Sequence record: OR352938.1 | Length of the DNA: 64,000 nt | Direction: 5' to 3' (one strand) | Origin: Escherichia phage AV108 | In this document: in pieces, positions 45,363-49,282 of the stretch | Numbering within the stretch: the first letter of the stretch is position 1 | Layout of the letters: each line of letters begins with the position of its first letter | Translations under genes and position numbers: made by a program | Notes under the pieces: generated by a model | The model's database searches: none | The model's input: only the letters and a program-made list of their open reading frames with translations | What the model was told of the DNA's origin: nothing

Positions 45363-45695
45363 TTATTGTTCTACAGTATAACCGTTGTTTTCAAGCCATG
45401 CAATAACAATCTTTTCGCCAATTTCATCGAGCATTTCATCAGAGCCATATTCTTTGATGAAAATCGATGGATCGTTATTGCTTACTACGTGCTGGATCAC
45501 AACATGTTCAGGAATTGCGTCTAGCAGTTCGCTATGATCATACTCATTAACGATATCTTCAACACTAACATTATTAACCAAATCAACATCATCCATAGTC
45601 ACAGTAACGCGACCGGACGGACGCAATGAATATTGGCTACTTTCAACTTCAACATGTGCACTTTCGCAAGTAACTTTCATATCAACCATAATCAA
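45363..45695 (-). CDS. strongly acidic small protein (DNA-mimic candidate)
   Basis: 110 aa with about 23 Asp/Glu against about 5 Lys/Arg. Confidence 0.45.
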   Translation of the reverse strand: MIMVDMKVTCESAHVEVESSQYSLRPSGRVTVTMDDVDLVNNVSVEDIVNEYDHSELLDAIPEHVVIQHVVSNNDPSIFIKEYGSDEMLDEIGEKIVIAWLENNGYTVEQ

Positions 45696-45703
45696 TTCCT
45701 CTG

Positions 45704-46705
45704 TTAGTAATGGCTAAAACCTTCGGTCACATCTTCAACCACATAGTAACGATGACAGCGCATTTTGGCATTTGCATAATCTTTCGGGATACTTACAACG
45801 TGACGCGGATCAACTTTGCATTTAATGATTCGGCCTCGTCCACCGCCATAGTGAGGAATATAGTGTTTCGCTGCAACGTGGAGGCCATTAGAGCAAGTGC
45901 GATCATCATCTGGGTCCACGTCTTTACGCTTCATTTTAACCGTGCGCCCTGGGCTATTATCAAACGTATGCGTAAAGAAATCTTTATAATCAACATCAAC
46001 ACGTTTCCATGCATAGAAACAACCATCTTCCCCGATCTCAATGTCGTTGTGCTCTAAGAAGTCAAACAGACGATCTACGGCCTTACGGCTAGGGTTTTTC
46101 TTGCACTTCTCAAAGAAGTTCAGATAGTGCGTATATGGCTTATTCTCTTTAATCGACTCCACAACTCGACGAGTCAGATTATTATCAAGAACAATATTAT
46201 GATAATACACAATACCATTTTCGATACGGAAAGCGCCGTGATAATATACTTCAACCGCTTTCTTAATGTCAATCAGCGTAATTGCTTTAATAAAATCATT
46301 CTGCTTAACTGCTTCCAGTGCTTCATTAAAGTTAACATGCGACGGATCAGCAGTATAAACAATGTCACCACATGTAATAGTAATAAACTTAGTTGAGGCT
46401 ATTGCTACGATTTTTGAGGAAGTAGTCACGGGCTTTTTTGCGCGTTCACCGCCTTTTCCTTTACTGGTTTTACGGCGTGCTTTACGTTTTTCTAGTGCCT
46501 TGCGGCCTTCCGCTACTGCGTCTTTCTGGATCAATAATACACGGGAGGCAGTGCGACGAGATACACCAAATGCTGCCGCAAGTGCTTCGCGGGTAGTAAA
46601 CTTACCTTCGCCCCACTGTTTAGCCAGTTTGATTTGTTTCGCAGAATCCAGGCATTGAACGTTACGGTCAGAGACGGTGATTTTTGCTTTAGTCATAGTA
46701 TTCAT
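45704..46705 (-). CDS. rIIB: rIIB membrane-associated protein
   Basis: C-terminal blocks match T4 rIIB as recalled (SRKAVDRLFDFL, NDIEIGEDGCFYAWK, FDNSPGRTVKM, VVSIPKDYANAKMR, YVVEDVTE). Confidence 0.88.
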   Translation of the reverse strand: MNTMTKAKITVSDRNVQCLDSAKQIKLAKQWGEGKFTTREALAAAFGVSRRTASRVLLIQKDAVAEGRKALEKRKARRKTSKGKGGERAKKPVTTSSKIVAIASTKFITITCGDIVYTADPSHVNFNEALEAVKQNDFIKAITLIDIKKAVEVYYHGAFRIENGIVYYHNIVLDNNLTRRVVESIKENKPYTHYLNFFEKCKKNPSRKAVDRLFDFLEHNDIEIGEDGCFYAWKRVDVDYKDFFTHTFDNSPGRTVKMKRKDVDPDDDRTCSNGLHVAAKHYIPHYGGGRGRIIKCKVDPRHVVSIPKDYANAKMRCHRYYVVEDVTEGFSHY

Positions 46706-46758
46706 TCCTCTATTAGTTGGGCGACTATCGCCGCCCGATTCACATCATTATACCAGAA

Positions 46759-46890
46759 TTATTTTGCTTCGACAACCTTTCGGATTGTGCGGTCTGATAC
46801 ATTATAGATTCGTGCCAGTTCGCCTTTAGTCAAGCCGCGAGCGTATTGTTTACGGATGGTTTCTTTCTGGATAGCGGTCAGTTTAGTCAT
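46759..46890 (-). CDS. small helix-turn-helix protein (43 aa) between rIIA and rIIB
   Basis: ATG 46888-46890 with AAGAGGTG RBS; MTKLTAIQKETIRKQYARGLTKGELARIYNVSDRTIRKVVEAK; below the ORF-track cutoff. Confidence 0.45.
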   Translation of the reverse strand: MTKLTAIQKETIRKQYARGLTKGELARIYNVSDRTIRKVVEAK

Positions 46891-46901
46891 AATATCACCT
46901 C

Positions 46902-49010
46902 TTAAAATTTAACATTCTTAACCAGTTTCATAAAGTCTTGTGCGCGTTTGTCGTTATGCAGAATACGATACCAGTTATCTACAATATCATACAGTAACGG
47001 GCTATTATCTTTAAACTTCGCACAAACTGCTTTAATTCGTTCGTTTGCTGCCGTGAATTTTTCATCACAGATCTTTTTAGTTTCTTCGTCCATAATCCAA
47101 CGAGTATGAAGGAGTAACTTGGAAACCTCTTTATTATAATGACGACCGTACAGTCTGTCAATAAATTCTGGAACACAGCGTTCTAGTTCATCGTCATGAA
47201 ACAACATAGTGATCACACCCAGATATTCGCCATACCCCAGATGATTGGTCTTAACCTTCTTAGCCAGACCAGCCAGCTTACCGCGAACAAATTCTAGCGC
47301 ACATTCCAATTGTTCGTCAACGAGATATTTTTGTGTCTCGTTACGAGTAATAATATACTTTGTTACCCCGAAGTAGTCAAGCGCCGTGTGTAATGTATTT
47401 TCACTATAGATCGATTTACGACTACGGCTTTCGAATGCATCACCTACGCGGAACATGTGCAAGCCTGATAACTCGCGAATCTCTGCCGCTTTCATGTGAT
47501 GGCTGGTTTTATGCCAACTGTCACCAATCTTTTCCATAATATACACGTTAGGCAGCTTAGGAGTCGCTTCACGTTGTGTACGCTCGGTCTTCTCCGGTTT
47601 AACTGCTTTAGCACGCAGATCATCGGCCTCTGATACTTTAATAACGGTCATTTCAGAATCATCATAATACTGTTTGATGTACTCGAAAGTCTCCATATGT
47701 TTTTCGTTGTTCTGACGGAACACCAGTACCTTTTTATTGATGCCGTATTCCTGGACCATGCCGTTAAGAGTCAGTGCACGCAGTTTCGGTTTATCGGTAT
47801 CATCAATAAGACACGTAATATCTTCTTTATGCATCCATACAAAATGCGTAATATTGTATTGACTGCTAACGAAAGCAGGTCGCAATTTGCTGATTGTGTG
47901 TCGATGATGATACAGAGTATACACCTGACCTTCTACGTCATTAGGCGAATCTTTACCCGCATTCACAAACTTATTATAGATTGCTACCGGATCATCCCAC
48001 TGTCCGATCTTACCCATCTTGCTAATAATATTGCGTTGCGTCGATGAATACTCGCTCATAAATTGCGCAAGTTTACGCTCTGTTTTAATGTTGGCGATCT
48101 TCTCTTTAACCTTTTCCAACATCATTTCATTGATTTCTGCAATGCGTTTTTCGATGTTCGCTTTAGTCTCAATTGACAAGTGAACTTCTTCACGCGATGG
48201 CATCAGGTCCAGATCACCCAACTCAAAATTAATGTAAATGGTCTGGTGCTGGCGGTTTACAGCTTCTAACCATGTTCCGCGAACATATTCATACGGGATC
48301 GGATACTGGATCTTACCCATGATTGCATATACGACATAGGAATCGTTGTCACGCCCATTACACACATAATAATTATCAAAGCTAGGGAAATAATTAATTT
48401 CGATTGCATTGATATTTGGTTTGTGTTCCCCAAAGTGACGCAGTACAAATTGCGCTTCTCTATGCCATGTCTGAATATCTTTTTCTTTCACTGGAATAGT
48501 GATTTTCAGACCATTGTCTTCATAGGTCGGTTCGTCAAAAATCTGCACCATTTTCGGCATAGAGTTTTGCACAAATGCCGTAAAGCCATAAGCGCGACCA
48601 TTGTAATAGTTTACGATTGTAAAGGTGTCGGTATAGCTATAAGCAGACTTCGCACCCAAACCAAAAGACCCGATATAGTCATTAGTCTGGTCTTTTGTTG
48701 ATTCAAAGTAAACCGTAAACAGTTGTTCTAATTCTTTCTTAGACGGAATACCAGTACCATAATCACGCACAGAAAAATACGGTTCGATTGCAGTCGGTAA
48801 ATGAATATCAAACGGACGATCTAAGGTTCCGGCTTCTTTGTGAGTGTCGGTAGCATTGCACGAATACTCACGGACGCAAGCACGTTCACAATATTGATAA
48901 GTGTTCTTAGAAAGCACCATAAAAGCCTTGCTACTTGCTTTCAGTGAAAAATCAACCGCACCGCTCAAGTCACTGCCAAATACTTCTTCATTATCAATAT
49001 GCATTTTCAT
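46902..49010 (-). CDS. rIIA: rIIA protein
   Basis: collinear with T4 rIIA as recalled (EPYFSVRDYGTGIPS, FTVYFESTKDQTNDYIGSFGLG, YGFTAF); 702 aa. Confidence 0.88.
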   Translation of the reverse strand: MKMHIDNEEVFGSDLSGAVDFSLKASSKAFMVLSKNTYQYCERACVREYSCNATDTHKEAGTLDRPFDIHLPTAIEPYFSVRDYGTGIPSKKELEQLFTVYFESTKDQTNDYIGSFGLGAKSAYSYTDTFTIVNYYNGRAYGFTAFVQNSMPKMVQIFDEPTYEDNGLKITIPVKEKDIQTWHREAQFVLRHFGEHKPNINAIEINYFPSFDNYYVCNGRDNDSYVVYAIMGKIQYPIPYEYVRGTWLEAVNRQHQTIYINFELGDLDLMPSREEVHLSIETKANIEKRIAEINEMMLEKVKEKIANIKTERKLAQFMSEYSSTQRNIISKMGKIGQWDDPVAIYNKFVNAGKDSPNDVEGQVYTLYHHRHTISKLRPAFVSSQYNITHFVWMHKEDITCLIDDTDKPKLRALTLNGMVQEYGINKKVLVFRQNNEKHMETFEYIKQYYDDSEMTVIKVSEADDLRAKAVKPEKTERTQREATPKLPNVYIMEKIGDSWHKTSHHMKAAEIRELSGLHMFRVGDAFESRSRKSIYSENTLHTALDYFGVTKYIITRNETQKYLVDEQLECALEFVRGKLAGLAKKVKTNHLGYGEYLGVITMLFHDDELERCVPEFIDRLYGRHYNKEVSKLLLHTRWIMDEETKKICDEKFTAANERIKAVCAKFKDNSPLLYDIVDNWYRILHNDKRAQDFMKLVKNVKF

Positions 49011-49024
49011 AATATAATCCTCAC

Positions 49025-49282
49025 TTAATTAAAATCTTCTTTGTCCATCTCTGCGTAGATTGCATCCCACGCCCATAAATCAATAAACGCATTATATGTC
49101 ACGGTGCAATCGTTGTCAATCACTTCTTTCGCATATTTCTTGATGTTTTCGTAGGAAACTTGCGGATCAATTTTGTGTTTACGAAGGTGTGTATATTCAT
49201 ACCTCAAACATTTCATAAACAGGTCCATCGATTTCTTTTCTCGATGAGACTTGGCGATCAGAAAATCAAAACTTCGACTCAT
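49025..49282 (-). CDS. hypothetical protein
   Basis: 85-aa ORF with AAGGAG RBS. Confidence 0.5.
   Translation of the reverse strand: MSRSFDFLIAKSHREKKSMDLFMKCLRYEYTHLRKHKIDPQVSYENIKKYAKEVIDNDCTVTYNAFIDLWAWDAIYAEMDKEDFN

Follow-up and report, generated by a model that had tools for sequence, protein, structure and literature searches.

The rII locus is among the most famous in genetics, and to our knowledge the biochemical role of its two products, RIIA and RIIB, notably that of the N-terminal segment of RIIB, is still not known. In Escherichia phage AV108, an RB49-like phage (Krischvirus, the RB49-like Straboviridae), a third and very small open reading frame (ORF) stands between the two cistrons. 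Is it a gene at all, what would its product be, where did it come from, and does it have anything to do with its neighbors? These questions are taken up here for a 64-kb segment of the phage genome, called the window, within which coordinates are given. The best explanation overall, to which we assign a probability of roughly 55%, is that the ORF is an early gene for a free-standing helix-turn-helix (HTH) protein of the RIIB type, duplicated and split off, whose product acts with RIIA and RIIB.

A Third Cistron between rIIA and rIIB

The gene order on the minus strand is rIIA, the 43-codon small ORF, and rIIB. The region from 45500 to 49200 is 95.5 to 98.5% identical to 58 phage records, RB49, JSE, GEC-3S, and KFS-EC among them. 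The features at the center of the locus are the following.

46902..49010, minus strand: rIIA, 702 aa, the upstream neighbor; phrog_612 (E 3e-188), with weak GHKL ATPase matches
46896..46903, minus strand: Shine-Dalgarno sequence AAGAGGTG, five bases upstream of the small-ORF ATG at 46890 and overlapping the rIIA stop
46759..46890, minus strand: the small gene, a predicted HTH gene of 43 codons (42 sense codons after Met, plus TAA); RB49ORF272c, phrog_15481
45704..46705, minus strand: rIIB, longest ORF 333 aa (46696 being the likely start); phrog_609 (E 2e-106)

A sequence-only reading of this DNA had proposed a 43-codon frame with a strong ribosome-binding site at this place, and both are there: the minus-strand ORF, its stop codon counted, translates exactly to MTKLTAIQKETIRKQYARGLTKGELARIYNVSDRTIRKVVEAK, and the Shine-Dalgarno sequence is found in front of it. 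By length alone such a frame is not beyond chance: ORFs of 30 aa or more that overlap the 7 kb here number 67. What takes the small ORF beyond chance is its HTH profile matches, its full-length match to phrog_15481, its conserved frame, and its ratio of nonsynonymous to synonymous change (dN/dS). The same reading had held the ORF to be unannotated, which proved wrong. It is listed as RB49ORF272c (AAQ15476.1) in RB49 and is annotated in GoldenSnicker, UPWr_E1, and GEC-3S as well, with the product labeled "hypothetical protein" in every annotated record inspected. Residues 1 to 43 match positions 1 to 43 of the 43-position profile phrog_15481 (E 3e-34), for which no function is given; this is the same family at the same position in RB49, with no differences. 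A literature search with the ORF name RB49ORF272c, the accession AAQ15476, and Krischvirus plus rIIB returned no mention of the small ORF. It is therefore already catalogued yet uncharacterized, and the gain in annotation is modest rather than a discovery.

Conservation and Selection

The sequence-only reading had looked to relatives for conservation of the frame, and the frame is kept, both in the Krischvirus records and in four divergent lineages. By tblastn it is intact in 58 of 58 matching Krischvirus records, with identities of at least 99% in 53 and of 95 to 99% in 5. The divergent lineages, which come from metagenomes (L004, L005/L006, L013/L014, and L015), carry a frame of 43 to 45 aa at the same position between rIIA and rIIB. 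Their small ORFs are 69 to 86% identical to that of the window at the amino acid level, and their RIIB proteins only 54 to 63% identical to the window RIIB. Across these comparisons, synonymous sites are near saturation (pS 0.5 to 0.86), nonsynonymous differences are few (pN 0.07 to 0.26), and dN/dS is 0.02 to 0.36. The small ORF is under purifying selection at the amino acid level, and its C-terminal half, TKGELAR[IV]YNVSDRTIR[KR]VVE (the C-terminal 22 residues), is nearly invariant across lineages. The spacing is kept within narrow bounds too, with 4 to 16 nt from the rIIA stop to the small-ORF ATG and 52 to 78 nt from the small ORF to rIIB in the five lineages. The next relative out, the outgroup L016 (P0010, whose RIIB has 42% identity), has neither the small ORF nor the RIIB N-terminal extension.

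Wider searches added few relatives. When IMG/VR was scanned with the small-ORF alignment, the matches were two RB49-like contigs and L012; the last of these was set aside as an unrelated HTH protein of a high-GC phage that shares only a generic GLTKGELA match. A word-indexed protein search with the 43-aa query gave only 5 candidates. Taken with the selection data, the small ORF is almost certainly a real gene.

A Small, Basic Protein with a Predicted Helix-Turn-Helix Fold

What kind of protein would it encode? The product is small and very basic (4.98 kDa, pI 10.4, net charge +7). The sequence-only reading had seen in it a classic HTH pattern, and two lines of evidence agree: residues 2 to 43 match the Pfam family CENP-B_N (PF04218) with 26.0 bits (gathering score, 21.2), and an AlphaFold2 model built from a 22-sequence alignment is a confident three-helix bundle (pLDDT 86.8; helices 6-18, 22-28, and 33-41). 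Many other HTH families match below threshold, Sigma70_r4, HTH_28, HTH_7, and Mor among them; sigma-70 region 4 (PF04545), for example, reaches 21.1 bits, under its gathering score of 24.1. NCBIfam and PADLOC searches with the small ORF gave generic HTH matches only, all sub-threshold, and neither RIIB nor the small-ORF profile matched a PDB sequence below E 0.2.

Structure comparison places the model among the tri-helical HTH domains of the CENP-B_N, IS21 IstA, and resolvase kind (PF04218 and PF02796). In Foldseek, it superimposes on the DNA-bound HTH of IS21 IstA (8b4h; TMq 0.82, rmsd 1.0 Å) and on that of CENP-B (1hlv; TMq 0.80, rmsd 1.5 Å), both over 39 to 43 residues, and on gamma-delta resolvase (1zr2 and 1gdt; TMq about 0.75, rmsd about 4 Å), with NarL/LuxR domains as a looser match. 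The Foldseek E-values are weak (0.09 or higher), which is explained by the small size of the domain (43 residues). From the profile match and the model, the small ORF very probably adopts an HTH fold. The fold and the family also make it probable, with less assurance, that the protein binds DNA, and it would do so via helix 3 (SDRTIRKVV), in the manner of the homing endonuclease, IstA transposase, and resolvase modules. There is one clear difference from these relatives. In CENP-B, IstA, and the resolvases, the HTH is a domain of a large protein that needs further domains, whereas the small ORF stands alone.

The RIIB N-Terminal Module

One of the closest known systems lies next door. Outside Krischvirus, tblastn with the small ORF finds the first ~40 residues of RIIB in T4-like phages of Klebsiella, Enterobacter, and Serratia, with about 52% identity. 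The alignment runs collinear over the whole small ORF, Met to stop, with a module that sits at the N terminus of RIIB in other T4-like phages. One match in Kpn6N (H55, "hypothetical protein") was considered as a further free ORF and proved to be the N terminus of an unnamed RIIB. The T4-type module (T4 residues ~3-46; PF26926, Phage_T4_rIIB) resembles the small ORF in being a three-helix HTH and in its genomic position, and the two have in common the motif h-L-T/D-x2-Q-K-x3-h-x3-h-x2-G-x-T/S-K-x2-L-A-x2-F/Y-x-V-S-x-R-T-I-x-R/K-V. In phrog_609, which is a fused RIIA-RIIB profile, the module occupies positions 756 to 795 of 1055, between the RIIA and RIIB parts.

A profile was made with 16 modules taken only from the RIIB N termini of other phages, and with no small ORFs in the training set. 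It scores the small ORF of the window at 45.0 bits (iE 3.8e-15) and all small ORFs at 43 to 50 bits, T4 RIIB at 35.4 bits (residues 3-46), and the window RIIB at 27.1 bits; 149 generic HTH proteins all stay at or below 40 bits, under the small ORFs. A six-frame scan of the 64-kb window with this profile gave two matches only, the small ORF and a module in the adjoining RIIB.

46535..46666, minus strand: second HTH module, diverged and still part of RIIB (residues 14-57, numbered on the 333-aa translation); 27.1 bits

The sequence-only reading had suspected an HTH-like segment at the rIIB N terminus, and this is it. The model of the window RIIB (pLDDT 88) has helices at 21-32, 39-45, and 50-59, in the same three-helix topology as the small ORF. 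The module is modeled as a separate unit; between it and the core come a long helix and then a linker, disordered and rich in Lys and Arg (pLDDT below 50 at residues 84-94). A module that folds separately on a disordered linker could plausibly work in detached form. Throughout the Krischvirus-like clade, the fused module is preceded by an extension of 11 to 14 aa (M..ITxSDRNVQ). When the RIIB model was compared with the PDB by Foldseek, the core was unmatched, and only the HTH region had matches, to DeoR and sigma region 4. The core itself (residues ~99-333) is predicted with high confidence and has no meaningful match to a solved structure by sequence or by Foldseek, so that its fold appears to be structurally uncharacterized.

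The small ORF is not covalently joined to RIIB: between them lie a TAA stop, a change of frame, and a 53-nt spacer with a promoter and a hairpin. It is separate in the 58 genomes and in the four metagenomic lineages, and it follows directly after rIIA and precedes the RIIB core in the window, L004, L005, L013, and L015. The small ORF thus differs from the T4-type module in being a polypeptide of 43 aa with its own Shine-Dalgarno sequence and stop, and the locus differs in having, beside this free copy, another that has diverged and remains part of RIIB. The number of copies is not fixed. L004 encodes an RIIB of 459 aa (P0009, L004 4685-6064) with three tandem modules at residues 1-43, 56-98, and 143-183, and it also carries a free-standing 43-aa module upstream. 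The observed arrangements are thus one fused module, three fused plus one free, and one fused plus one free, and module copy number in the rII locus varies between lineages.

Duplication and Fission, or Capture?

Where did the free copy come from? The sequence-only reading offered two origins, a split-off RIIB module or an insertion, of which the first appears largely right once it is amended to a module duplicated and then split. In favor of the first, the small ORF is collinear with the RIIB module and scores 45 bits with the RIIB-module profile against 35 for T4 RIIB itself. A simple split, however, would have left RIIB without its module, and RIIB keeps its own copy at residues 14-57. With two tandem copies at the locus, duplication plus fission is called for, and the three modules plus free copy of L004 show that tandem module duplication has occurred in this clade. 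The insertion has sequence likeness on its side, in that the HTH modules of certain endonucleases are 55 to 62% identical to the small ORFs and the best RIIB modules 43 to 53%; against it, those endonucleases sit in unrelated genomes.

The steps by which duplication plus fission might have proceeded are easily drawn. In an ancestor of the Krischvirus-like phages, the RIIB N-terminal module would have been duplicated in tandem. The upstream copy would then have become a cistron of its own as a stop codon, a promoter, and the rIIB ribosome-binding site evolved in the former linker. The free copy would have kept the canonical sequence and the copy fused to RIIB would have diverged.

The competing origin is the capture of an HTH from a homing endonuclease (of the HNH_3/NUMOD4, GIY-YIG, or T5orf172 kind) that had entered the rIIA-rIIB junction, lost its nuclease, and was domesticated; the likeness to the RIIB module would then reflect no more than shared membership of a broad HTH family. 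Homing endonucleases often sit between conserved genes in T4-like phages, and in Kpn6N an "endonuclease" is encoded two genes downstream of rIIB. The closest single modules, by profile and by pairwise score, are indeed endonuclease associated. An exhaustive profile search of 1.84 billion representatives gave only one close cluster, the 43-aa family itself, followed by generic proteins with 2 to 7 tandem HTH modules and by homing-endonuclease-like proteins (HNH_3/NUMOD4, GIY-YIG, and T5orf172); Pfam confirmed the nuclease domains of P0093, P0111, and P0169. With the small-ORF profile, single domains of two of these reach 48.8 bits (P0093) and 46.8 bits (P0111), and RIIB modules 33.5 bits at most. 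Pairwise identity to the small ORFs is 55% for P0093 and up to 62% for P0111 (P0169, P0177, P0144, and P0163 are further neighbors of this type), and it is only 32 to 37% for RIIB modules of the same clade. The motif K-L-T-x2-Q...Y-N-V-S-x-R-T-I is common to the endonuclease modules and the small ORF. Given that the nearest modules by pairwise score are those of endonucleases, sequence alone does not prove an RIIB origin.

Several observations nevertheless make capture unlikely. The similar endonucleases come from unrelated phage contexts, one beside a primase and a split PolIII-alpha and another in a prophage immunity region, and as the extremes of 1.84 billion proteins they are subject to selection bias. 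Among 50,697 phage records, tblastn found no endonuclease relative, only RIIB N termini and generic HTH proteins. In the endonucleases, the module anchors a nuclease to DNA, whereas the small ORF has no nuclease domain inside it or adjacent to it; no nuclease remnant flanks it, and the short gaps to rIIA and rIIB leave no room for one. Run in reverse, the comparison favors RIIB: besides the scores obtained with the RIIB-module profile, when 38 RIIB modules were each compared with 127 non-RIIB modules, the five closest included a small ORF in 18 cases. The sole other copy of the module in the window, moreover, is that of the adjoining RIIB. On position and architecture, then, duplication plus fission of the RIIB module is favored as the probable origin. 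In our reading, the small ORFs, RIIB modules, and endonuclease modules are all members of one broad HTH family.

The searches also brought up many uncharacterized proteins of 220 to 720 aa (P0075-P0092) that consist of 4 to 7 tandem modules of ~40 aa (KLTxxQxxxIxxxYxxGxSxxxLAxxYxVSxxTI). Some tandem-module proteins (P0085, P0090, and P0093) are fused to GIY-YIG or HNH nuclease domains.

Expression Signals

When would the small gene be expressed? The rIIA stop (TAA, 46904..46902) is 11 nt from the small-ORF ATG, and because the Shine-Dalgarno sequence overlaps this stop, the layout allows translational coupling to rIIA. Elements of the form GAGGTG, GAGGTA, or GGTGA stand 4 to 8 nt upstream of the small-ORF ATG in L004, L005, L013, and L015. 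Three further predicted signals lie in and around the gene.

47133..47161, minus strand: perfect consensus TTGACA-N17-TATAAT in the rIIA 3' end, 243 nt upstream of the small-ORF ATG
46747..46775, minus strand: predicted sigma-70-like promoter TTGTCG-N17-TATAAT with an extended -10 (TGg), pointing at rIIB
46719..46736, minus strand: GC-rich hairpin GGGCGGC-GAUA-GUCGCCC, between the small-ORF stop and the rIIB Shine-Dalgarno sequence, with no U-run after it

The first may serve the small ORF and rIIB as a second promoter, and each of the four divergent loci has a near-consensus counterpart 194 to 374 nt ahead of its small ORF. Another perfect TTGACA-N17-TATAAT is present at 49091-49119 (minus strand), upstream of rIIA and inside the preceding 85-aa ORF. 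Promoter-like sites in the region number 19, compared with 11.1 ± 3.2 in shuffles. The predicted promoter pointing at rIIB overlaps the last codons and the stop of the small ORF; it is annotated as a promoter in GEC-3S and has counterparts in L004, L005, and L015.

The hairpin, too, has counterparts (L004 4634-4653, L005 2722-2745, L013 3464-3481, and L015 1745-1769). In all five lineages, it is a GC-rich stem of 7 to 9 bp without a U-run, kept in position and differing in stem sequence. The -10 hexamer immediately precedes it in the window and in L004, which would place the hairpin at the 5' terminus of rIIB mRNA; in L005 and L015, the -10 hexamer is inside the hairpin loop. An Rfam search with the spacer hairpin found no match. 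It could be an element that stabilizes or processes mRNA. At the start of rIIB itself, a GAGGA (46710-46706) abuts the first ATG at 46705 (MNTMTK...), and a second ATG at 46696 (MTKAK..., 330 aa) has usable spacing. The second is therefore the likely start, and it is the one used in the RB49 and GoldenSnicker records.

RB49-type phages have T4-like early promoters and are without MotA and middle promoters (PMC1524935). With the signals described, the small gene is most likely an early gene, co-expressed with rIIA and rIIB. It would be transcribed together with rIIA and/or from the promoter in the rIIA 3' end and translated from the strong Shine-Dalgarno sequence that overlaps the rIIA stop codon.

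A DNA-Binding Accessory to RIIA and RIIB?

What might a detached RIIB module do? Clues from T4 concern the fused form. In classical T4 genetics (Crick et al. 1961; Champe & Benzer 1962), the first segment of rIIB reportedly tolerates frameshift windows, and the deletion r1589 is said to remove the rIIB start without loss of B function. If the start of rIIB is dispensable, as this work has it, the module would be an accessory to the core RII function, and the fused module is left without a known role. A phage with an r1589-like rIIA-rIIB fusion is Rex sensitive (BASEL paper, PMC8594841). Iyer et al. (2021) take RIIA for a GHKL ATPase counterdefense protein and RIIB for a specific transcription factor (PMC7824862). 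In the window, RIIA residues 75-165 have a weak GHKL ATPase match (HATPase_c_3, E 0.003) and a weak PADLOC match to TmtA (E 4e-5), as would be expected if RIIA is, as published, an ATPase of the GHKL family.

Most likely, the accessory DNA-binding role that the RIIB module plays in cis elsewhere would here be filled in trans by the small protein, working with RIIA and RIIB. That the protein works with RII at all is put forward tentatively, at slightly less than an even chance. With no solved or recognizable structure for RIIB and its core, no interaction surface can be proposed.

The small protein might instead be a stand-alone regulator of transcription that acts on specific phage or host promoters and has nothing to do with RII, its position being a historical accident. 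Such a regulator may control the rIIB promoter that lies over its own 3' end, or may aid the switch from early to later expression in a lineage without MotA. The overlap of that promoter with the end of the small ORF, the lack of MotA and of a middle-promoter consensus in RB49 (PMC1524935), the view of RIIB itself as a specific transcription factor, and the similarity to sigma-70 region 4, Mor, and late-activator families are all in keeping with this. The similarity is sub-threshold, however, and a protein of 43 aa has no dimerization or effector domain. The inverted repeat beside the rIIB promoter was considered as an operator for the small protein and rejected, because its stem sequence changes from lineage to lineage and the recognition helix does not; nor did the variable spacers, compared across lineages, show a conserved DNA motif of the operator kind. 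Strict linkage to rIIA and rIIB in every lineage argues, moreover, for a functional tie, and a regulator unrelated to RII is distinctly unlikely. It is far harder still to believe that the ORF has no protein function, being either a decaying remnant of the RIIB N terminus or a leader or upstream ORF whose translation matters for rIIB. The ORF is very short, it directly precedes rIIB, and no record calls it anything but "hypothetical," as might be expected of such an element. Yet selection acts strongly on its amino acids with synonymous sites saturated and the C-terminal 22 residues nearly invariant, its Shine-Dalgarno sequence is its own and conserved, and its predicted fold is confident; rIIB for its part has its own promoter, hairpin, and Shine-Dalgarno sequence 52 to 78 nt downstream, in a different frame. 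An early HTH protein derived from RIIB and acting with RIIA and RIIB is the reading retained here.

Implications

Apart from the interest of the rII locus, the small ORF is an ordinary small HTH gene. For annotation, "hypothetical protein" could be upgraded to "RIIB-N-terminal-type HTH DNA-binding protein" in some 60 genomes of coliphages that are candidates for therapy. One bolder speculation, decidedly a long shot, is that RIIA/RIIB has in the RIIB-type HTH a DNA-binding subunit that can be detached and whose dosage varies, and that the free copy may have become regulatory in its own right, on phage or host DNA, in the MotA-less Krischvirus-like phages. If so, the three-cistron locus would be a natural separation-of-function allele, and it could reveal what the "dispensable" beginning of rIIB does and whether RII has DNA as its target. 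The module is here a separate gene, under strong selection across the clade and variable in copy number, and it thus offers an experimental handle on this part of the rII system that leaves the RIIB core untouched.
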